Source of the DNA: a phage
Sequence record: PV935351.1
Reading direction: 5' to 3' (one strand)
Length of the DNA: 39,767 nucleotides
This document shows positions 1 to 39,767 of this stretch, piece after piece. The notes beneath the pieces are model-generated. The model saw nothing but the letters and a program-made list of their open reading frames with translations, ran no database searches and had not been told where the DNA came from. How positions within the stretch are numbered: the first letter of the stretch is position 1; the number at the start of each line of letters is the position of its first letter. A program made the position numbers and the translations under genes.

Positions 1-204
1 TCTCACAGTTCAAGAACCTCAAGTCTCCCCCCCTAGGCCCTCTTTCAGTCCAGACCAAAGGCCCTACCCATTACTGCTCCTTGCAGTCACAGCCAGTCTA
101 TCATAAGGTTGGACCGATGGTCAAGACGTTAGGTCGACGATAGGTCTAGGCTATGGCTTAGGGAAGGACGATAGGTAGAGGCTATAGGTCTTCTTTGAGT
201 CTCT
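1..204. repeat. left direct terminal repeat (DTR)
   Basis: Bases 1-204 are identical to 39564-39767 by direct comparison; typical of T7-like genome ends. Confidence 0.95.
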
Positions 205-234
205 ATCTGTATAGTGTTATAGTATAACATTACG

Positions 235-325
235 TCCTACACCTACAGTCTCACTAACCTACAGTCTCACTAACCTACAGTCTCAACCATAAGACACCAA
301 CACCTACAGTCAGAGACCTACGGTT
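235..325. repeat. short direct-repeat array just inside left DTR
   Basis: CCTACAGTCTCACTAA in three tandem copies (242-289, 16-bp period, third copy degenerate), plus CCTACAGTC at 303-311 and CCTACGGTT at 317-325. Confidence 0.8.
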
Positions 326-435
326 AATAGACACAAAGGCTATAGACTTAAGGTCTAAGACATGTTAGTCAAAGACTATATCCTCTTACACCATGGGGCC
401 GACGATAGCTTAATCAATATTATTTAAATAACCTA

Positions 436-466
436 TTGACTATAGGTCCAGACTATGGCCTAATAG
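436..466 (+). promoter_or_regulatory. candidate host sigma70 early promoter (weak match)
   Basis: TTGACT at 436-441 followed about 19 nt later by TAATAG; poor -10 match; lies in the early leader. Confidence 0.3.
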
Positions 467-575
467 CTTCCGTCAACACGACACGGCAACAACCGGATAG
501 TGAAGACGCCGGTCCGGTCCGGTTAAGTAGTCAGCCTGTAAGACATACGAACAACAGGCAACCGACAGAAAGTAG

Positions 576-605
576 TTGACAAGATGTAACGATAAGATGT
601 AAGAT
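576..605 (+). promoter_or_regulatory. candidate host sigma70 early promoter (T7 A3-like)
   Basis: TTGACA (576-581), 18-nt spacer, TAAGAT (600-605); the same -35/-10 hexamers as recalled for T7 A3. Confidence 0.5.
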
Positions 606-728
606 GTACCACATCGAAACAACGGTGATGACCAACACTGAAATGGTCTACCTGAAGTCCTCTGACTGAAGGGAATGCTCTTTAACAATCTGGATAAACT
701 CTTAATGTGCGCCGATAGCGACTAACTA

Positions 729-760
729 CAGGGCCTTTGAGTCTACATCTGAAGGCCCTG
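729..760 (+). other. stem-loop in gene 0.3 leader (possible RNase III site)
   Basis: CAGGGCCTT (729-737) and AAGGCCCTG (752-760) form a perfect 9-bp inverted repeat with a 14-nt loop, about 35 nt upstream of the gene 0.3 start. Confidence 0.5.
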
Positions 761-794
761 ACTGATAGTCACTAACAACTGAGAGGATATAACT

Positions 795-1304
795 ATGGAA
801 CGTAACGCTAACGCATACTATGAGCTGCTGGCTGCAACCGTTGAGCTGTTCAATGAGCGTATTCAGTGCGACGAAATAGCTGAAGGCGATGACTACAGCG
901 ATGCGCTACATGAGGTCGTAGACGGTAATGTTCCGCACTATTACCACGAGATTTTCACGGTGATGGCTGCTGATGGTATTGACCATGAGTTCGAAGACTC
1001 TGGGCTGATGCCTGAGACCAAGGACGTAACGCGTATACTACAAGCTCGCATCTATGAGGCACTGTATAACGATGTGTCTAATAGCTCTGACGTGGTCTGG
1101 TTTGAGGCTGAAGAGGAGGACGAAAAGGCTGAATATTGGGTAGTTGACACTAGAACAGGCGAGATAATTGATACAGCTGTATCAATTTACGAGGCTATTG
1201 CATGTGCAAAAGAACTATATGAGGAAGGTTTTCACATGCAGGTCGAAGACATCAACGATAACGTAGTGTTCGATCCTGAGGCTGCTGAGGAGGACTGCGA
1301 GTGA
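795..1304 (+). CDS. 0.3: Ocr-like DNA-mimic anti-restriction protein with C-terminal extension
   Basis: 169 aa; core [43 protein letters not shown] closely matches recalled T7 Ocr; about 55 extra acidic residues at the C-terminus; GAGG RBS. Confidence 0.85.
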
Positions 1305-1465
1305 TGGTAACTTATGGTCTCTGCCAGCACCACGTCTCCATCGCCAGGCTTATGGTCTTGACCGGGCGATTAACCCACGAGGAGTCTATGCGTCTCCTGA
1401 AGGTGCTCTATGAGCGCCGCAAACGTATGCACGATAGTCTACACGCTGAGGATAAACCACAATGA
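1304..1465 (+). CDS. small early protein, gp0.4-like
   Basis: 53 aa, ATG overlaps the gene 0.3 stop (TGATGG); GAGGAGG RBS; YGL...LLKVLYE pattern resembles recalled T7 gp0.4. Shorter than 60 aa, so absent from the ORF track. Confidence 0.5.
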   Translation: MVTYGLCQHHVSIARLMVLTGRLTHEESMRLLKVLYERRKRMHDSLHAEDKPQ

Positions 1466-1611
1466 AACGATACGCTATACACATTCCGGGATGGTGTTAC
1501 ACAATGACTTGCTACGGATACAACGAGAGAGACGCAAGAGCCCGCTTCCGTGACCAGCAAGGATTCGGTAAACGTCTGCCAAATGGTACGGCTATCTGGG
1601 AGATTGACTAA
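1462..1611 (+). CDS. hypothetical small early protein
   Basis: 49 aa (MKRYAIHIPGWCYTMTCYGYNERDARARF...), ATGA overlap with the upstream ORF, GAGG RBS. Confidence 0.45.
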   Translation: MKRYAIHIPGWCYTMTCYGYNERDARARFRDQQGFGKRLPNGTAIWEID

Positions 1612-1612
1612 C

Positions 1613-1738
1613 ATGTACCAGATAACTTATAGCAGTGAACAGGCGTTCTATGATGGGTGTTACGAGATGATGAAGCGTGGTGCTTGCTTCGTGGCTAATC
1701 ACCATGCGCTAACCATAACACTGACAGGTGGATACTGA
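1613..1738 (+). CDS. hypothetical small early protein
   Basis: 41 aa from ATG 1613 (MYQITYSSEQAFYDGCYEMMKRGACF...), GGGAG RBS; the track ORF 1550-1738 probably starts here. Confidence 0.4.
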   Translation: MYQITYSSEQAFYDGCYEMMKRGACFVANHHALTITLTGGY

Positions 1739-1808
1739 GTGATAGACGAGAGGTCATCTACTGATAGGTGGCCTCAAAGATTACCACTTACATTGATAGG
1801 ATTTAACT

Positions 1809-1913
1809 ATGAGTACTGCAATCATCTGGACCATCTCTGGCTTCGTAGCGTGGGGAATGTTTACTCTAGTCTGCAAACTACCGGTCCTTACTCAACTGTT
1901 ATGGGGCTTATGA
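1809..1913 (+). CDS. hypothetical small hydrophobic peptide
   Basis: 34 aa MSTAIIWTISGFVAWGMFTLVCKLPVLTQLLWGL, one predicted TM helix, AGGA upstream. Confidence 0.3.
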   Translation: MSTAIIWTISGFVAWGMFTLVCKLPVLTQLLWGL

Positions 1914-2113
1914 CTATGATATCTGCACTATTGATAGCCATAGGCTATGGACTTATCGCCTACGTGCTGGTGAGTGACATTAAAAAGGCGCGTAAAGTCT
2001 ACAAATTCAACTATGTACGTCTGGGCCGCTGGACCGTACGTCAACCTAACGGACGATTCATGCGCAACTTAGCGAACGTCTGGGATATAGCAACTATTGG
2101 GAGCAAACTGTAA
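1901..2113 (+). CDS. hypothetical small membrane protein (alternative GTG start at 1739)
   Basis: In-frame ATG at 1901 gives about 70 aa with hydrophobic segment MISALLIAIGYGLIAYVLV; the track's 1739 start is a GTG. Confidence 0.4.
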   Translation: MGLMTMISALLIAIGYGLIAYVLVSDIKKARKVYKFNYVRLGRWTVRQPNGRFMRNLANVWDIATIGSKL

Positions 2114-2505
2114 TGAACAAGTCAAATCGGGTACACGCACTGGACCAAATCATAACGCAACGCACATTCACTGATAAGAACGGCGTAGAGTGGAAGTATG
2201 TTGGAATGGACTCGCGTGGTCGCAACTACTGGGAGAAGACCGGGAGAAAGAGCGCTTATGTGCATCGTCGCTCGTCACACACCGTACGTCAACAGCAGGA
2301 GCGAGAGCGTGTACTTGAGGCACGACTCCGTGCCGAGGGCCATAAGTCTGAGCTGATGTGGCTGGTGTATGGTGGACGCCCAATCACTGACGATGGTAAA
2401 CTTCTGGTCTCAGGCTGGACGGCGAGAGACCAACGGTCAACCATCAAGCACACGACCAAAGGTGACTTCAGTCATCTCCACGCTAACCCACTGATATGCA
2501 AGTGA
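2113..2505 (+). CDS. hypothetical early protein
   Basis: 130 aa, basic; ATG overlaps the upstream stop (TAATG); GGGAG RBS; no motif recognised. Confidence 0.6.
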   Translation: MNKSNRVHALDQIITQRTFTDKNGVEWKYVGMDSRGRNYWEKTGRKSAYVHRRSSHTVRQQQERERVLEARLRAEGHKSELMWLVYGGRPITDDGKLLVSGWTARDQRSTIKHTTKGDFSHLHANPLICK

Positions 2506-2510
2506 TTCTG

Positions 2511-2533
2511 ACTTAACTATCACTATAGGACTC
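2511..2533 (+). promoter_or_regulatory. phage RNAP promoter upstream of the RNAP gene
   Basis: CTTAACTATCACTATAGGA, +1 G at 2528; -8 to -1 (TCACTATA) identical to the T7 promoter. Confidence 0.7.
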
Positions 2534-2602
2534 AAGGTCTAAGACTACAAGTGAAAGACCAAAGAGACTCTAAGTGAAAGACTAATAACAAGGACTTTAA
2601 GT

Positions 2603-5284
2603 ATGAGCGTCATCTCTATTGATAAACACGACTTCTCTGATGTGTCGAACGCCATTGAGCCGTTTAACCTGCTGGCAGACCACTACGGGCAAGACCTTGC
2701 AGTCAAACAGCTTCAGCTTGAGCATGAGGCATACACAGAAGGCGAGCGACGTTTCATCAAAAACCTTGAGCGACAGACTGAGCGCGGGGAACTGGCAGAC
2801 AATCAGGTCGCCAAGCCTTTGATGCAGACTCTGGTGCCTAAGATTGCGCAAGCAGTCAAGGAGTGGCACGAAGGCCAAGACGGGAAGCTGTCAACCTCTC
2901 GTCCTAGCGTAGCGTTCACCATGTTAAGCACCGAAGAGAAGGCCGTCAAGGACCGCTCTCTGCGTATCTCTTGCGAGTCTGCTGCGGTCATCATACTGAA
3001 GGTCATACTCTCCAAGCTGGTAAAGCCTGAAGGGATACCGATTACACCGATGGCCTCAGCGTTAGGTCGCACACTTGAGGACGAAATCCGCTTCGGTCGC
3101 ATCCGTGACAAGGAGAAGGAGCACTTCAAGAAGGCGATAGCTGAGAACCTGAACAAGCGAGCTGGGGCATCCTACAAGAAAGCCTACATGCAAGCGGTAG
3201 AGGCATCCATGCTGGAGCAAGGCCAACTGGAAGATGCGTGGGGGACTTGGAGTCCGACCGAAGCGGTACACGTTGGCATCAAGATGCTAGAGATTGTCAT
3301 CCAGTCCACACAACTGGTCGAGCTTAAGCGTTATGGTGCTGGCAATGCGGCGGCTGACGTTGAGATGGTCCACCTGTCAGACTTCTGGGTCAAGAAGATG
3401 GCACAACGAGGATTCAGCCTTGCGGGTATAGCTCCAGTCTACCAGCCTTGCGTCGTTCCACCTAAGCCGTGGACTGGTGTCGTAGGTGGTGGGTACTGGG
3501 CCAAAGGTCGCAGACCGCTACCCCTGATTCGCTTAGGGTCTAAATCAGCGGTGGCACGTTATGAAGACGTATACATGCCTGAAGTCTATGACGCTGTGAA
3601 TATCATCCAGAATACACCTTGGAAAGTGAACAAGAAGGTACTGGACGTGGTGAACATGGTCGAGAAGTTGAACAACACGCCTATTGATGACATCCCTCAG
3701 ATGGAGCCACTGAAGCCTGAAGACTATGCGGGTGAGACTGAGGAGGAACTCAAGGCATGGAAGAAGGCTGCTGCTGGTATCTATCGCCGCGAGAAGGCCC
3801 GACAGTCACGCAGATTATCACTGAGCTTTATCGTTAACCAAGCAAACAAGTTCTCTCAGTTCAAGGCCATCTGGTTCCCGTACAACATGGATTGGCGAGG
3901 TCGTGTCTACGCTGTCCCGATGTTCAACCCTCAGGGTAACGACATGCAGAAGGGTCTACTGACTCTGGCAGTCGGCAAGCCTATTGGTGCTGACGGTTTC
4001 AAATGGCTGAAGGTCCACGGTGCGAACTGTGCGGGTGTCGATAAAGTCACCTTCGAGGAGCGCATCAAGTGGGTGGAAGACAACCACGAAAACATCATTG
4101 CTGCTGCTAAGGCACCGATGGATAGTATTGAGTGGTGGGGCAAGTTAGACTCTCCGTTCTGTTTCCTCGCGTTCTGCTTCGAGTATGCTGGCGTAATGCA
4201 CCACGGCCTGTCTTACTCCTGCTCGCTGCCGATAGCGTTCGATGGGTCCTGCTCTGGTATTCAGCACTTCAGTGCGATGCTTCGTGACCACATCGGTGGA
4301 CATGCAGTAAACCTGACGCCATCCGGTAAGGTACAAGACATCTACCGCATTGTGTCTGACCGCATTGAGGAGGAGCTTAAAGTCCTGCTGATTACAGGTA
4401 CTGACAACGAGATGGACACTCACGAGGACAAGAAAACTGGTGAGAGTACCGAACGTATCAAGCTGGGGACACGAGAGCTGGCCCGTCAGTGGCTGACATA
4501 CGGTATGTCACGCAAGGTCACTAAGCGTTCAGTCATGACTCTGGCCTATGGGTCGAAAGAGTACGGCTTCGCAGACCAAGTTTATGAGGACATCGTGATG
4601 CCAGCGATTGACTCAGGGTCTGGCGCTATGTTCACCGAGCCTAGCCAAGCGTCTCGCTTCATGGCTAAGATGATTTGGGAAGCTGTGAGTGTGACCGTAG
4701 TTGCTGCGGTTGACGCGATGAAGTGGCTTCAAGGTGCTGCCAAGCTGCTGGCTGCTGAGGTGAAGGACAAGAAGACTGGAGAAATCCTGAAGCCTTGCCT
4801 TCCGGTACACTGGGTAACACCTGATGGTTTCCCGGTCTGGCAGGAATACCGCAAGAAGGATACCACTCGTCTGAACCTGATGTTCTTAGGGTCATTCAAC
4901 CTTCAACCTACGGTCAACAAAGGTATGAAGAAGGAGTTGGATAAGCACAAGCAGGAGTCAGGAATTAGCCCGAACTTCGTCCACTCACAAGATGGTAGCC
5001 ATCTCCGCAAGACTGTAGTCCACACTCACCGCAAGTATGGCGTGATGTCATTCGCAGTGATTCACGATAGCTTCGGGACCATCCCGGCTGACGCTGAGTA
5101 TCTGTTCCGTGGCGTCCGTGAGACAATGGTCGAGACCTACCGCGACAACGATGTGCTGCTTGACTTCTACGAGCAGTTTGAATACCAGCTTCACGAGAGC
5201 CAGCGCGACAAGTTGCCTGAGCTTCCGAAGAAAGGTAAACTAAATATCGAGGACATCTTGTCTTCAGACTTTGCATTCGCTTAA
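2603..5284 (+). CDS. 1: T7-type single-subunit DNA-directed RNA polymerase
   Basis: 893 aa; collinear with recalled T7 RNAP, ending in the shared FAFA terminus and including WFPYNMDWRGRVYA, LPIAFDGSCSGIQHFSAMLRD and HDSFGT. Confidence 0.98.
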   Translation: MSVISIDKHDFSDVSNAIEPFNLLADHYGQDLAVKQLQLEHEAYTEGERRFIKNLERQTERGELADNQVAKPLMQTLVPKIAQAVKEWHEGQDGKLSTSRPSVAFTMLSTEEKAVKDRSLRISCESAAVIILKVILSKLVKPEGIPITPMASALGRTLEDEIRFGRIRDKEKEHFKKAIAENLNKRAGASYKKAYMQAVEASMLEQGQLEDAWGTWSPTEAVHVGIKMLEIVIQSTQLVELKRYGAGNAAADVEMVHLSDFWVKKMAQRGFSLAGIAPVYQPCVVPPKPWTGVVGGGYWAKGRRPLPLIRLGSKSAVARYEDVYMPEVYDAVNIIQNTPWKVNKKVLDVVNMVEKLNNTPIDDIPQMEPLKPEDYAGETEEELKAWKKAAAGIYRREKARQSRRLSLSFIVNQANKFSQFKAIWFPYNMDWRGRVYAVPMFNPQGNDMQKGLLTLAVGKPIGADGFKWLKVHGANCAGVDKVTFEERIKWVEDNHENIIAAAKAPMDSIEWWGKLDSPFCFLAFCFEYAGVMHHGLSYSCSLPIAFDGSCSGIQHFSAMLRDHIGGHAVNLTPSGKVQDIYRIVSDRIEEELKVLLITGTDNEMDTHEDKKTGESTERIKLGTRELARQWLTYGMSRKVTKRSVMTLAYGSKEYGFADQVYEDIVMPAIDSGSGAMFTEPSQASRFMAKMIWEAVSVTVVAAVDAMKWLQGAAKLLAAEVKDKKTGEILKPCLPVHWVTPDGFPVWQEYRKKDTTRLNLMFLGSFNLQPTVNKGMKKELDKHKQESGISPNFVHSQDGSHLRKTVVHTHRKYGVMSFAVIHDSFGTIPADAEYLFRGVRETMVETYRDNDVLLDFYEQFEYQLHESQRDKLPELPKKGKLNIEDILSSDFAFA

Positions 5285-5298
5285 CAGGAGAGAGAGTT

Positions 5299-5514
5299 AT
5301 GAAATTTGCACACAAGCAGGCTGGAGTTAATGGTGGGACTCAAATCGTGACCGTAACAGAACACAACGGAAAGGGTCTGGTGAAGACCACGGTCATTCCT
5401 ACCGAAATGTCAAAGCAGCTTAACGTCCCATTCAAGACCCTCGTCTATCTTGTGGAATCCAGCCACGAGAAATACCTGAAAGACGCAGTGACCAAGCTGG
5501 AGCAGACCAAATGA
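5299..5514 (+). CDS. hypothetical protein
   Basis: 71 aa with a strong RBS (AGGAGAGAG); no motif recognised. Confidence 0.55.
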   Translation: MKFAHKQAGVNGGTQIVTVTEHNGKGLVKTTVIPTEMSKQLNVPFKTLVYLVESSHEKYLKDAVTKLEQTK

Positions 5515-5589
5515 CAGACCTACAGTTACTGGCCTTGTGGCTTGGAGCACTAGCAGTATTCACTTTAATCCAACGCAGAAGAGGTTAAC

Positions 5590-5612
5590 CCTAAACTATC
5601 ACTATAGGATTA
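5590..5612 (+). promoter_or_regulatory. phage RNAP promoter
   Basis: CTAAACTATCACTATAGGA, +1 G at 5607. Confidence 0.8.
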
Positions 5613-5662
5613 GACTCAAGGTCATGACTCAAAGTCGTGGCCTTCATGATTAACCCTAACTC
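5611..5662 (+). ncRNA. conserved structured RNA element, copy A (candidate RNase III site)
   Basis: TAGACTCAAGGTCAT, 11 variable nt, GTGGCCTTCATGATTAACCCTAACT; the same element recurs at 12952 and 36562. Confidence 0.55.
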
Positions 5663-5682
5663 ATTCAATCAGGAGCTACACC

Positions 5683-5862
5683 ATGTATCAGAACACTATC
5701 AACTTCGAGCGAATCCGTGAACGTCAGCAGACTGAAGACTACATTCCGAAGGGACGCAAGCTGAACAAGACCAAGCGTGGCGGCGGTGTCAAGGGTGCTT
5801 TCCGTAACGCTGAAGGCAAAGACTCTATGGTAAACCAAGAGAAGTATTTCGTAGGAGCGTAA
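5683..5862 (+). CDS. 1.1: gp1.1-like small basic protein
   Basis: 59 aa; KGRKLNKTKR matches recalled T7 gp1.1; GGAG RBS. Not in the ORF track (under 60 aa). Confidence 0.7.
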   Translation: MYQNTINFERIRERQQTEDYIPKGRKLNKTKRGGGVKGAFRNAEGKDSMVNQEKYFVGA

Positions 5863-5865
5863 GAC

Positions 5866-6117
5866 ATGAGTAAACGTTGGCTATTCGACGCATCCACGAG
5901 CCAGTGGTCAGCGGTAGGCCGGACTCACCGCGCGATGAGTGAGGCAGGACTTGATGTCCTAATGGATTACTCGCCGTTCCCCGGAAAAATTCTGGTCAGA
6001 GTAATTGAAGCAGATGGTGGGAGGCTTCTGGTCTCCAGAGAATTTACCGAAGATGAAATCTTTAACTGTGAGCAATGGTGCTTACAACAATTGAACGCTT
6101 ATAGGAGCTGGAAATAA
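5866..6117 (+). CDS. 1.2: gp1.2-like protein (T7 gp1.2 inhibits host dGTPase)
   Basis: 83 aa, same size and position as T7 gp1.2, ends ...NAYRSWK (T7 ends ...DWK). Confidence 0.7.
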   Translation: MSKRWLFDASTSQWSAVGRTHRAMSEAGLDVLMDYSPFPGKILVRVIEADGGRLLVSREFTEDEIFNCEQWCLQQLNAYRSWK

Positions 6118-7169
6118 TGACAACGACTATCAAAACTAACCCGCACCGCGCTGTAGATTACTCTGAGTCTGGCGTTAAGAAGGCACTGGAAGCAGCCGGG
6201 TCGCTTGAAGCTGAAGTGAAGTACGATGGCGTCCGGTTGAATCTTCCGGTCTTCCCTACTGGTGAGACCCAATGGTTGAGCCGTGAGTCTAAACCTCTCC
6301 CAGCCCTTAGCTGGTTGAACACTTCCGGTCAGGACATAGGAGCTACCAAAGCGAGCGACTGGCGGTGGTTCCTGAAGCAAGCTGGCTATGAAGGGACTGG
6401 TCTGATGATTGATGGCGAGGTCATGGTGAAAGGGGTTGACTTCAACACGTCTTCGGGCCTCATCCGCACGAAGTATGTCAAGTCTAAAAACTACGACTTC
6501 CACGATGGCGATTGGGACCTCAAGTCCAAGACTACTCAGTTCCGGCTGGACCGAGACCATATCAAGGTGGTCGTCTACGGTGTAGTGGACCTTAACGTCA
6601 TCCTTGACCCGAAAGCCGAAGGTCCTATCCATAGCGTCACACGCCTGAAGGCCGAAGCTATCGTCCCTCTCCTCCAGAAATACTTCCCGGAAATCGACTG
6701 GGTTCTGTCTGAGTCACACACGGTCTATGACCTTGAGTCGCTCAGCTCCCTGTACGAAGAGAAGCGGCTGGAAGGACATGAGGGTCTGGTAGTCAAGGAC
6801 CCGCTTGGTAAATACAAGCGTGGCAAGAAGTCAGGCATGTGGAAAATGAAGCCTGAGGAGACCATCGACGGGACCGTGTGTGGCCTAGTGTGGGGGACTC
6901 CGGGCAAGGCTAACGAAGGTAAGGTGATTGGCTTTGAGGTGCTGCTTGAGGATGGCATGGTGGTTAACGCTTGTGGCCTGACTGAAGAACAGAAGGATGA
7001 GTTTACGGAAGCCTGTAACACTGATACATATATCCTCGGTGAAATCAATCCATACGAAGGCTGGCAGTGTGAAGTCCTTTTCATGGAGAGGTTCCCTGAT
7101 GGCTCACTCCGTCACCCTAGCTTCAAGTGCTGGCGCGGGACGGAAGACAACCCGACCGTTAAGAGTTAA
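6117..7169 (+). CDS. 1.3: ATP-dependent DNA ligase
   Basis: 350 aa; adenylation motif I KYDGVR at residues 35-40; T7 gene 1.3 position. Confidence 0.95.
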   Translation: MTTTIKTNPHRAVDYSESGVKKALEAAGSLEAEVKYDGVRLNLPVFPTGETQWLSRESKPLPALSWLNTSGQDIGATKASDWRWFLKQAGYEGTGLMIDGEVMVKGVDFNTSSGLIRTKYVKSKNYDFHDGDWDLKSKTTQFRLDRDHIKVVVYGVVDLNVILDPKAEGPIHSVTRLKAEAIVPLLQKYFPEIDWVLSESHTVYDLESLSSLYEEKRLEGHEGLVVKDPLGKYKRGKKSGMWKMKPEETIDGTVCGLVWGTPGKANEGKVIGFEVLLEDGMVVNACGLTEEQKDEFTEACNTDTYILGEINPYEGWQCEVLFMERFPDGSLRHPSFKCWRGTEDNPTVKS

Positions 7170-7281: not shown

Positions 7282-7542
7282 ATGTTTAAGAACTTAATGT
7301 TCAACCGTTATACCAGTACCTTCCACCTGTCCAACAACCCGTTCGCTTGCATTAAGCGCAACGAGAAGCTGGACTACTTCGGGAAGGTCGTTAAGCTGTC
7401 ACCTACAGTCTACGCTCTGATTACTCAGGGTAAAGCTGAAGAGGCTCGCCAAAAACGTGAGACCAACGTACCTGTAGTCTACACCAAGTGGCCTCGCGTT
7501 CGTCTGTTTATTGAGTTCGTGAAGGAGGTGATCAATGGTTAA
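7282..7542 (+). CDS. hypothetical protein (gene 1.6 position)
   Basis: 86 aa; AAGGAGG RBS. Confidence 0.65.
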   Translation: MFKNLMFNRYTSTFHLSNNPFACIKRNEKLDYFGKVVKLSPTVYALITQGKAEEARQKRETNVPVVYTKWPRVRLFIEFVKEVING

Positions 7543-7975
7543 GGTGGGGGATACAGTTAAATATGTTGGACCAATTGGAGCCCACATGGGACGCTCCTGT
7601 GGCAAGGTGATAATGGTTAAGAATGAGCATGTGGCTGTTGTTAAGTGGCCCCATTCATCTGAACCACTCACTCACTCCATTAGTTCCTTAAGTATTACCA
7701 AGCAGGCGCAGTCCGAGCCGATAACCATAGGTCAGGAAGATAGCGTCCGTAAGCCATCTCACTATCAGGTCTTTGACGGTGTGGAATCCATTGAGATTAT
7801 CGCTCGGTCAATGACTGTCAGCGAGTTCCGTGGCTTCTGCATGGGTAACGTCCTTAAGTATCGACTCCGGGCTGGTAAGAAGTCCGAGCTGGCTACTATG
7901 GAGAAGGACCTAAACAAAGCAGCCTTCTACCAGGAGCTGTTCGACCTGCATAAAGGTAAGTGTTATGACGTCTAG
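7535..7975 (+). CDS. 1.7: gp1.7-like protein (nucleotide kinase family, C-terminal homology only)
   Basis: 146 aa; the C-terminal 80 aa (KPSHYQVFDGVESIEIIARSMTV...LKYRLRAGKKSELA...KCY) match recalled T7 gp1.7; the N-terminal 65 aa differ and lack the Cys-rich motifs. Confidence 0.75.
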   Translation: MVKVGDTVKYVGPIGAHMGRSCGKVIMVKNEHVAVVKWPHSSEPLTHSISSLSITKQAQSEPITIGQEDSVRKPSHYQVFDGVESIEIIARSMTVSEFRGFCMGNVLKYRLRAGKKSELATMEKDLNKAAFYQELFDLHKGKCYDV

Positions 7976-8387
7976 TGATTGCATTGACCATGACTACAAC
8001 TGCAAGAGCTACGCAAATGTGTATTCCAAAGCTCATGGTAGAAACTTTGGTCTTCACCGAATAGTTCTAGCGGAGAAGTTAGGAGTCGATGTGGCTGAAA
8101 TGAAGGGAGTAGCGATGCACTCTTGTGACAATAAGAGATGTGTCAATCCTGAACACTTACAGTTAGGGACCCAGAGTCAGAACGTACTGGATGCACACTC
8201 AAGAGGACTGGTAAACGTGGTGTCTGGAGAAAAGCACCCAATGATCAAGCTCACAGACGAGCAGATTGCATATGTTCTGGGTAGTACGCTAGGCGCGAGA
8301 GCGATTGGCAGAGAGCTGGGAGTTTCACATTCGTTAATAAGCAGGTTGAGAAATGGAAAAGCAAGAGCTTCCCAGCGAGTGGGCTGA
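7965..8387 (+). CDS. HNH homing endonuclease
   Basis: 140 aa; HNH core HSCDNKRCVNPEHLQLGTQSQN; C-terminal HTH-like segment; AT-richer with AGA/AGG codons. Confidence 0.8.
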   Translation: MTSSDCIDHDYNCKSYANVYSKAHGRNFGLHRIVLAEKLGVDVAEMKGVAMHSCDNKRCVNPEHLQLGTQSQNVLDAHSRGLVNVVSGEKHPMIKLTDEQIAYVLGSTLGARAIGRELGVSHSLISRLRNGKARASQRVG

Positions 8388-8460
8388 GAGAAAATTTGAG
8401 GAGACAGGTAACGTCGATTACCTTCATCTCTACAACCAATGGAAGGAGCGTGGTCTATGA
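8353..8460 (+). CDS. hypothetical small ORF (gene 1.8 position)
   Basis: 35 aa, overlaps the HNH gene end and the gene 2 start; no clear RBS. Confidence 0.25.
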
Positions 8461-8615
8461 CTGACGTAGAAAAGAAATACATCGTGGAGCTTGAGGGTCG
8501 CGTTCAGTCATTCGATGTTCCGGTGTACGCAAAGTCTCTTGAAGAGGCTACCCTGAAGTCCCAAGAGTATGAGGACGCGGGGTTTGTGGTCGGACGGATT
8601 CGTCCTGAGACCTAA
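8457..8615 (+). CDS. 2: gp2-like inhibitor of host RNA polymerase
   Basis: 52 aa [31 protein letters not shown]...[11 protein letters not shown]; resembles recalled T7 gp2; GGAAGGAG RBS. Confidence 0.75.
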
Positions 8616-12951: not shown

Positions 12952-12998
12952 TAGACTCAAGGTCATTCACATCGAGTGGCCTTTATGATTAGACTAAA
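12952..12998 (+). ncRNA. conserved structured RNA element, copy B (candidate RNase III site)
   Basis: TAGACTCAAGGTCAT, 9 variable nt, GTGGCCTTTATGATTAGACTAAAC. Confidence 0.55.
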
Positions 12999-13011
12999 CG
13001 GAGGATTAACC

Positions 13012-13413
13012 ATGTTTGATTGCATTGAGTGGACCGGGTGTCGAGATAGTTTCGGCTATGGTATGCGAAAGGTCAACGGGAAGGTCCGTAGACTACATCT
13101 GATAGCCTTCGAGGAGGCGAATGGTCCGATACCAGAGGGAATGGTCGTGAGGCACAAATGTGACAACCCTGCGTGCTACAATCCAGAACACTTGGAGCTG
13201 GGGACAAGGGCTGAGAACAATCACGATAGAGACGTTAGAGGTCGAACCGCTAAAGGCGTGCGACATGGAAGCTCTAAGCTTACACCTGAAATAGTACAAG
13301 AGGCCAAGGCTCTTTACGCAGTAGGTGGCTGGACTCACCGCTCATTAGGTAAGAAGTATGGAGTGGGTCACCGCACACTGGCTAGAGCAATTGGAGGAAA
13401 AACATGGACTTAA
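13012..13413 (+). CDS. HNH homing endonuclease
   Basis: 134 aa from ATG 13012 (GGAGG RBS); HKCDNPACYNPEHLELGTRAENNHD core; C-terminal HTH-like segment; AGA/AGG codons. Confidence 0.8.
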   Translation: MFDCIEWTGCRDSFGYGMRKVNGKVRRLHLIAFEEANGPIPEGMVVRHKCDNPACYNPEHLELGTRAENNHDRDVRGRTAKGVRHGSSKLTPEIVQEAKALYAVGGWTHRSLGKKYGVGHRTLARAIGGKTWT

Positions 13414-39563: not shown

Positions 39564-39767
39564 TCTCACAGTTCAAGAACCTCAAGTCTCCCCCCCTAGG
39601 CCCTCTTTCAGTCCAGACCAAAGGCCCTACCCATTACTGCTCCTTGCAGTCACAGCCAGTCTATCATAAGGTTGGACCGATGGTCAAGACGTTAGGTCGA
39701 CGATAGGTCTAGGCTATGGCTTAGGGAAGGACGATAGGTAGAGGCTATAGGTCTTCTTTGAGTCTCT
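39564..39767. repeat. right direct terminal repeat (DTR)
   Basis: Identical to bases 1-204. Confidence 0.95.

Follow-up and report, generated by a model that had tools for sequence, protein, structure and literature searches.

The early region of a K1F-like phage lacks the gp0.7 kinase and is very probably an ordinary Kayfunavirus class I operon with six small genes

The phage DNA of sequence record PV935351.1, a stretch of 39,767 nucleotides hereafter called the window, carries six small open reading frames (ORFs A to F) between gene 0.3 and gene 1 of its early region and no gene encoding a gp0.7 protein kinase. The results indicate that this interval is, with high probability, the ordinary class I (early) operon of a Kayfunavirus in which the kinase is lacking and all six small genes belong to known families. 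A direct terminal repeat of 204 bp is present in exact copies at positions 1-204 and 39564-39767 and, since the same 204 bp are found at both ends, the window represents the whole linear genome. The ORF list combined with a scan against PHROG families revealed the full T7-like gene order. A megablast search with positions 700-2700 matched 273 phage records, of which those of Kayfunavirus (the K1F group) were the best, and the best single phage record covered 85% of this stretch. The first 25 kb were 93-95% identical, over 91-93% of the length, to the E. coli Kayfunavirus phages phiYIO1-1, HC12 and IME177. On this evidence the window is the complete genome of a K1F-like Kayfunavirus (K1F/EcoDS1/CR44b type) belonging to the Studiervirinae. 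A preliminary description of the DNA had noted that the early region has small ORFs and no ORF of kinase size. This layout is not peculiar to the genome, being the standard early region of Kayfunavirus shared with K1F, EcoDS1, CR44b, CLB_P1 and others. The absence of gene 0.7 and all six ORF families are already known, the ORFs being present in public annotations as hypothetical proteins, and CR44b was stated to be without gene 0.7 in the genome paper of 2014 (PMC4038870). The finding matters little in itself, the lack of the kinase being a published trait of the genus and the early region being of a standard type.

The absence of the kinase was examined with several searches. The best match of T7 gp0.7 in a tblastn search of the whole 39.8-kb window had an expectation value (E) of 1.3. 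A profile hidden Markov model (HMM) built from five kinases (T7, T3, CR8, Sarma103 and MBBL139) and run with filters off against all 662 six-frame segments of at least 30 amino acids (aa) gave a best E of 1.4, and the same HMM recovered kinase remnants of 35-60 residues from two control phages with E of 3e-23 and 9e-15. A PHROG scan of ten selected other ORFs revealed no gp0.7 kinase (phrog_2828 or phrog_15752). The only "kinase" among the ten was the gp1.7-type nucleotide kinase at 7535-7975, the scan otherwise returning a ligase, two HNH endonucleases, gp2.5, an exonuclease, a spanin and others. Nor was there a separate gene for the host-shut-off domain that forms the C-terminal part of T7 gp0.7, no segment having matched the full-length T7, T3 and Sarma103 queries by tblastn or HMM. 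These results indicate that the gp0.7 kinase and fragments of it are absent from the whole genome, in agreement with the preliminary description for the early region and extending to the remainder of the window. The tblastn search for the kinase was also negative in all ten typical Kayfunavirus loci (EcoDS1, K1F, CR44b, LM33_P1, CLB_P1, EPr2, SEA1f, KKP_3263, PDP351P4 and Aba_01KA) that form part of a cross-phage presence/absence matrix of 13-17 loci. Since a gp2-type protein that inhibits host RNA polymerase is present (Table 1), the genome encodes a host shut-off factor that is independent of gp0.7.

The small ORFs had been described as standing in the interval instead of the kinase. This view is not tenable, because for each family another phage can be named that carries both it and a gp0.7 kinase. 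The family of ORF A does so in T7 and that of ORF D in CR8, while ORF B is found in Yersinia phage phiYe-F10 beside genes 0.6, 0.65 and 0.7. The kinase is further accompanied by the family of ORF C in Rahnella phage Sarma103 and MBBL139, by that of ORF E in T3, CR8, Sarma103 and MBBL139, and by that of ORF F in CR8 and MBBL139. The order of elements in CR8 is an RNA hairpin of the R0.5 type described below, a kinase-only gp0.7 of 242 aa, a second hairpin, and then the homologues of D, E and F, and that in MBBL139 is C, hairpin, a 244-aa kinase, hairpin, E and F. Enterobacter phage B1, also classified as Kayfunavirus, encodes a 41-aa protein, a 243-aa kinase that occupies this slot too, and proteins of 53, 64 and 108 aa followed by the RNA polymerase (PMC12785254). 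In phages ST17 and ST15 the kinase survives only as N- or C-terminal fragments, located ahead of the downstream hairpin. From these arrangements we infer that hairpin repeats delimit the kinase as a cassette the phages can do without, the window representing the form with a single hairpin and no kinase. The small ORFs A to F are likewise independent accessory cassettes in a mosaic: among the ten typical loci, ORF A and the C-terminal domain of ORF F are present in all ten, ORF E in nine (all but CR44b), and ORFs B, C and D each in only some.

The opposite of loss in the lineage of the window, less likely than not, would be that gene 0.7 was absent from the K1F lineage from the outset and that the short 243-aa kinase of MBBL139, B1, EP1 and CR8 was gained horizontally into a hairpin-flanked slot. 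The window and the ten typical relatives have one hairpin and no remnant of a kinase, identity between the short kinase and those of T7 and T3 is no more than 35-39%, and MBBL139, which bears the kinase, diverges most among the members examined, with 92% identity in the N-terminus of the RNA polymerase versus 97-100% for the others. However, the fragments in ST17 and ST15 indicate that deletion of the kinase occurs within the genus, and T7, T3 and CR8 carry the kinase gene at the equivalent place.

The association of the small genes with intact kinases also bears on the idea that at least one small protein, most of all the product of ORF F (gp0.38) in the position that 0.7 has in T7, took over the shut-off or regulatory role of gp0.7 and rendered the kinase dispensable. 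Homologues of E and F are located beside an intact kinase in MBBL139 and those of D, E and F in CR8, and thus are not alternatives to the kinase; proteins of matching sizes accompany the kinase in phage B1; and the window contains gp2 and no ORF similar to either half of gp0.7. A replacement of this kind is very unlikely, even though ORF F is directly 5' of the promoter for gene 1, the place of 0.7 in T7 and T3, and encodes a basic protein (isoelectric point, pI, 10.2) with a strongly conserved C-terminal domain found in all ten typical loci.

Early-region genes carry the label "protein kinase" in the GenBank records of LM33_P1 (LT594300), IME177, CY1 and ZH4. The gene so labelled in LM33_P1 is Ocr (ocr-like in RefSeq), and the kinase HMM was negative in the LM33_P1 locus. 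Such labels look like misannotations and could mislead searches for gp0.7.

The layout of the early region is summarized in Table 1. The preliminary description was correct in reporting six small ORFs between gene 0.3 and gene 1, the sizes of 53, 49, 41, 34, 65-70 and 130 aa being confirmed, and also in regarding them as early genes. Since all six are upstream of the first phage promoter (phi), they are class I genes, which the host RNA polymerase would read, and the phi promoter marks the end of the strictly host-transcribed block. The core of the phage promoter, TAAACTATCACTATAGGA or a close variant, is present in 10 copies on the + strand versus 0.01 expected by chance. The junctions between the genes are tight (TGATG between Ocr and A, ATGA between A and B, a 1-nt gap between B and C, and TAATG between E and F), and these close or overlapping stop and start codons are consistent with translational coupling. 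A purine-rich Shine-Dalgarno-like stretch (GAGG, GGAG, AGGA or GGGG) is located approximately 8-15 nt 5' of each of the six starts. ORF E has further in-frame ATG codons at 1901 and 1910, and is 70 aa long when read from 1901. Selection was evaluated from the ratio of nonsynonymous to synonymous differences (pN/pS) in a codon-level comparison with homologues from 13 related loci. The pooled values were 0.44 for A, 0.08 for B, 0.15 for C, 0.40 for D (three comparisons only), 0.29 for E and 0.35 for F, with 0.21 for Ocr and 0.04 for the N-terminus of the RNA polymerase as comparators. The nucleotide differences among the homologues were mostly at third positions. All six ORFs recur in other phage genomes and are on that account more than chance ORFs. 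Taken together, the comparisons indicate that ORFs A to F are real genes under purifying selection.

It is most improbable that certain ORFs, D (34 aa) and C (41 aa) in particular, are chance frames in a conserved leader or spacer. Both are very short, D lacks a PHROG match and could be compared with three sequences only, and a clear artefact (the GTG ORF at 1739) adjoins D, but the CR8 homologue, 47% identical to D, has the same 34-aa length and the KLPV.TQ motif with the other two frames closed by stops, C is found in 110 phage records and is 76% identical to its Sarma103 counterpart with a pN/pS of 0.09, and all six ORFs have the Shine-Dalgarno-like sequences and close junctions described above.

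The GTG ORF just mentioned, of 124 aa at 1739-2113 in the output of the ORF finder, was considered as a further gene and rejected. It starts inside the RNA hairpin, and the frame shuts after approximately 20 codons in CR8, K1F and MBBL139. The first 25 codons are conserved because the RNA hairpin is being read as protein. The EcoDS1 ORF of "unknown product" (1493-1636), "0.41" of CR44b (1333-1551) and phrog_36394 are probably artefacts of the same hairpin.

Table 1. Features of the window and comparable hairpins and post-hairpin peptides in other phages.
Feature	Genome	Position	Strand	Remarks
Putative host (sigma-70) early promoter, A-type	Window	436-472	+	92% identity to host RNA polymerase promoter annotated in EcoDS1 (469-505)
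Second promoter-like, near-consensus sigma-70 site	Window	576-605		TTGACA-18-TAAGAT
Gene 0.3, Ocr DNA mimic, K1F-type	Window	795-1304	+	169 aa; Pfam ocr E 8e-31; phrog_2568
ORF A	Window	1304-1465	+	53 aa
ORF B	Window	1462-1611	+	49 aa
ORF C	Window	1613-1738	+	41 aa
Putative RNase III processing hairpin, T7 R0.5-type	Window	1737-1789	+	Lower stem, internal loop, upper stem; z = -2.3
ORF D (post-hairpin slot peptide, CR8 gp0.705 family)	Window	1809-1913	+	34 aa
ORF E	Window	1916-2113	+	65 aa from conserved start
ORF F	Window	2113-2505	+	130 aa
First phage RNA polymerase promoter (phi)	Window	2511-2533	+	100% identity to annotated EcoDS1 "phi" promoter
Gene 1, single-subunit RNA polymerase	Window	2603-5284	+	893 aa; ORF list
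gp2-type host RNA polymerase inhibitor	Window	8439-8615	+	Pfam RNA_pol_inhib E 2.6e-19
Post-hairpin slot peptide, gp0.5	T7	1496-1639
Post-hairpin slot peptide, gp0.36	K1F	1840-2007
Post-hairpin slot peptide, other version	MBBL139	~2486-2575
Post-hairpin slot peptide, other version	ST15	~2005-2130
Hairpin pair flanking kinase	CR8	1805-1862, 2598-2657
Hairpin pair flanking kinase	MBBL139	~1614-1672, ~2415-2470
Hairpin pair flanking unrelated 75-aa cysteine-rich gene	LM33_P1	1370-1426, 1727-1785

The resemblance of the first ORF to gp0.4 of T7, noted in the preliminary description, was confirmed at the level of families. ORF A matched phrog_5058 (E 2e-21) and is 71-82% identical to gp0.35 of EcoDS1 and K1F, a gene named "0.4" in CR44b. 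The Pfam family PF26807 (PF26807.1), which bears the name Phage_T7_GP04, is assigned to a database protein that matches ORF A with 100% identity along its full length, to 15 further homologues, and also to all 43 homologues of T7 gp0.4. T7 gp0.4 matched the PHROG of ORF A with an E of 9e-5, and an hhalign comparison of the two families gave a probability of 82% with an E of 1e-5 over 41 columns. Both proteins are approximately 50 aa long, both have a start that overlaps the stop codon of gene 0.3, and the motifs Y-G-L, G and LK.LYE..K are shared. These family-level comparisons have shown ORF A to be a divergent member of the T7 gp0.4 family (Pfam Phage_T7_GP04). The two proteins also differ. 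The identity of ORF A to T7 gp0.4 is only approximately 37% over the 41 aligned columns, plain BLAST between them is not significant (E 0.45), and the two are placed in different PHROGs (7202 for gp0.4 and 5058 for ORF A). Membership in PF26807 was taken from precomputed annotations of the identical protein, the model not being in the Pfam version scanned.

T7 gp0.4 is an inhibitor of FtsZ that blocks cell division. Judged from family membership, ORF A would most likely block cell division by binding FtsZ in the manner of T7 gp0.4, although the low identity to gp0.4 and the pN/pS of ORF A, the least constrained of the six ORFs, count against this. It has been reported that infection with K1F mislocalises FtsZ through an unidentified factor, and the authors of that 2022 study found "no 0.4" in K1F by BLAST (PMC9372555). 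The Pfam assignment to Phage_T7_GP04 makes gp0.35 an obvious and direct candidate for this factor in K1F. The odds that FtsZ is mislocalised by gp0.35 (ORF A) in K1F-type phages are put at about even.

ORF B belongs to phrog_13225 (E 5e-33) and is predicted to encode a soluble, basic protein. It was found in 89 phage records that include T3-like phages of Yersinia, Klebsiella and Citrobacter, 150-kb myoviruses (CR3, phiTE and others) at 48-57% identity, and one Pseudomonas phage at 39% identity. Because the homologues span such distant phages, ORF B is hard to explain unless it is protein-coding. Within the ten typical Kayfunavirus loci it is present in two. ORF C belongs to phrog_33188 and was annotated as gp0.351 in CLB_P1, where it is described as "inserted compared to K1F". 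B and C are soluble mini-proteins moving as cassettes between unrelated phages. Searches of the PDB with ORFs A, B and E returned nothing.

The preliminary description had characterised several of the ORFs as hydrophobic, which holds for D and E but not for the remaining ORFs: a single membrane helix is predicted in each of these two only, whereas A, B and F are basic and soluble. The hydrophobic segment of ORF D is located at residues 4-22 (KD19 1.82), and ORF D, a member of the CR8 gp0.705 family, is predicted to be a single-pass membrane peptide. It was found in 36 phage records and is 100% identical in LM33_P1. No similarity to T7 gp0.5 was evident (tblastn E 3.6; different PHROG assignments), the two having in common only the position after R0.5 and hydrophobicity, and no sequence similarity to K1F gp0.36 was detectable. 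The slot directly 3' of the R0.5-type hairpin is occupied by a small hydrophobic peptide in every phage in which the slot was read (Table 1). Fusion of D and E by frameshift or readthrough was considered and rejected, the relative frames of D and E being different in the window and CR8.

ORF E belongs to phrog_2385 (E 3e-32) and corresponds to gp0.37 of K1F ("0.6" in the other K1F record) and gp0.71 of CR8, with identities of 91-94% to the EcoDS1 and K1F proteins and 80% to CR8 gp0.71. The hydrophobic segment occupies residues 1-19 (KD19 2.35) and the pI is 10.8. The relationship of ORF E to T3 had been overlooked in the preliminary description. The 65-aa gp0.6 of T3 is 40% identical to ORF E over 60 aa (BLASTP E 4e-9), and the two share the N-terminal hydrophobic helix, a T-V-R-x-x-N-G-R-F motif and a position downstream of R0.5. 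On these grounds ORF E is a homologue of T3 gp0.6, a protein for which we know of no function. T7 gp0.6A is an inhibitor of MreB. ORF E is unrelated to it, tblastn giving no match in the region and phrog_8393, to which T7 gp0.6A belongs, being matched by no ORF of the window. Both D and E would insert in the inner membrane, E acting as a membrane anchor with a basic tail.

ORF F is 83% identical to gp0.38 of EcoDS1 and also corresponds to gp0.38 of K1F. The match to phrog_7066 covers residues 44-130 (E 1e-40). The protein is built from a conserved C-terminal domain of about 84 aa, ending in GDFSHLHANPLICK, and a variable N-terminal module of 46 aa. G-D-F-S-H-L, a motif of the C-terminal domain, varies little or not at all in the alignment. 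Whereas gp0.38 was found in 223 phage records, the long N-terminus is present in only 18 of them. The N-terminus (2113-2250) is modular, with at least three forms on one C-terminal domain: the 46-aa form "FTDKNGVEWKYVG.DSRGRNYWEKTG", a short form "SKSYGINLVHALDADLNLL", and none. The CR8 protein contains an internal tandem duplication of 17 aa.

The remote homology search proposed for this 130-aa protein revealed nothing outside its own gp0.38 family. Sequence searches of Pfam, NCBIfam and the PDB gave nothing significant. When 5.8 billion proteins were searched through a word index, 141 relatives of Kayfunavirus type were obtained, all lacking Pfam domains and functional names; those on complete contigs come from DNA of about 39-40 kb, a size typical of T7-like genomes. 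Exhaustive profile searching of 1.84 billion cluster representatives gave 15 matches, of which approximately 13 are genuine (57-122 aa); two long matches, to zinc-finger and PKD-repeat proteins, were judged spurious. No exact copy of the gp0.38 of the window is on record in public assemblies. These searches indicate that gp0.38 is a true orphan family, confined to the K1F/CR8 clade and under purifying selection. No paper turned up in literature searches for "gp0.38" or for peptides of A, E and F, and nothing on these ORF families was found in the literature on screens for accessory or counter-defence genes in Autographiviridae. It may be supposed that gp0.38 would act on some host target. A further-reaching reading, which appears improbable, is that gp0.38, possibly with the membrane proteins D and E that precede it, represents a novel type of effector serving early host takeover or anti-defence. 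The AlphaFold model of gp0.38 is too poor for fold matches to be meaningful (pLDDT 58, pTM 0.27, with the conserved C-terminal half below 50). The earlier suggestion that the small ORFs are candidates for new functions holds weakly, in that B to F are without known function like most phage early mini-proteins, but not as regards novelty, the families already being recorded in other phages. Screens for toxicity or interaction partners could reasonably be directed at gp0.38.

The hairpin between ORFs C and D is 92-98% identical in nucleotide sequence across all Kayfunavirus loci, whichever genes flank it. It aligns with the R0.5 region of T7 and with the T3 stem-loop annotated as "RNase III recognition site R0.5", at 63-72% identity to the T7 and T3 sites. 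The blocks GTGATAGAC, AGGTC, GTGGCC and GATTA and a two-stem fold with an internal loop are common to the hairpin and the T7 and T3 R0.5 sites, and in both T7 and the window the stop codon of the upstream gene lies in the 5' arm. R0.5 of T3 directly follows gene 0.3, whereas in the window three genes intervene between gene 0.3 and the hairpin. When 15 sites, among them R0.3 and R0.5 as annotated in T3, were folded to a consensus, 8 of 19 pairs had compensatory changes. A simple hairpin motif also recovered T3 R0.3, the T7 R1.1 region and a second copy in the window at ~5605-5660. Two points argue for caution in assigning processing to this site: an Rfam scan of positions 1-6200 gave no match at all, Rfam containing no family for such sites, and cleavage by RNase III would follow from homology of sequence and structure only.

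As direct repeats around optional early genes, the hairpins may be recombination boundaries for the exchange of cassettes, and an optional kinase located beside or between RNase III-type hairpins suggests how early-gene cassettes are exchanged. A cysteine-rich protein of approximately 73-75 aa (CTxHKF...CDxCGQEA) is encoded between the two hairpins of LM33_P1 (1439-1666) and between E and F in Aba_01KA (2199-2420). It is absent from the window, and the varied placement is a further sign of cassette mobility.

Based on homology to T7, T3 and EcoDS1, a scheme of transcription and processing can be proposed in which the host RNA polymerase would start near the two sigma-70-type sites and read rightward through gene 0.3, the six small genes and gene 1. 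Processing at the R0.5-type hairpin would split the small genes into the groups A-B-C and D-E-F.

The Ocr protein encoded by gene 0.3 is 95% identical to gp0.3 of K1F. This K1F form of 169 aa has a C-terminal extension of approximately 59 aa past the acidic run, which is missing from the 110-aa forms of EcoDS1 and CR44b and from T7 Ocr (117 aa); the genus holds both forms. The N-terminal 133 aa of the RNA polymerase are 97-100% identical to those of Kayfunavirus RNA polymerases. Two genes of the HNH homing-endonuclease type are located in the class II region at 7965-8387 and 12985-13413 (phrog_59, 1872 and 6254). Among the phages used for comparison, "Staphylococcus phage MBBL139" (OR786095.1) is a Kayfunavirus by classification, with 80-92% identity to enterobacterial phages in the RNA polymerase, E and F. 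Staphylococcus aureus, given as the host, therefore seems questionable, and so does the host of "Acinetobacter phage vB_Aba_01KA".

The early region of the window corresponds closely to those of the named relatives. In K1F (NC_007636), EcoDS1 (EU734172), CLB_P1 and CR44b the order of elements is as in the window, namely 0.3, gp0.35, the hairpin, a hydrophobic peptide, gp0.37, gp0.38, phi and gene 1; like the window, all four are without gene 0.7, and the protein identities are 64-95%. The order as annotated is 0.3, 0.35, 0.36, 0.37, 0.38 and gene 1 in K1F, and 0.3, 0.35, 0.6, 0.38, the phi promoter and gene 1 in EcoDS1. The mix of B and C with D and the long N-terminus of gp0.38 was not seen together in any single locus examined, although each part has a counterpart: PDP351P4 and Aba_01KA share B plus C with the window, LM33_P1 and CR44b share D, and EcoDS1 and SEA1f share the long gp0.38. 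Beyond these phages, the early region of CR8 (Caroctavirus) differs from the window in having the kinase between two hairpins and in being without B and C, yet it resembles the window in the R0.5-type hairpins and in a block of D, E and F homologues (gp0.705, gp0.71 and gp0.38) located directly 5' of the gene 1 promoter.

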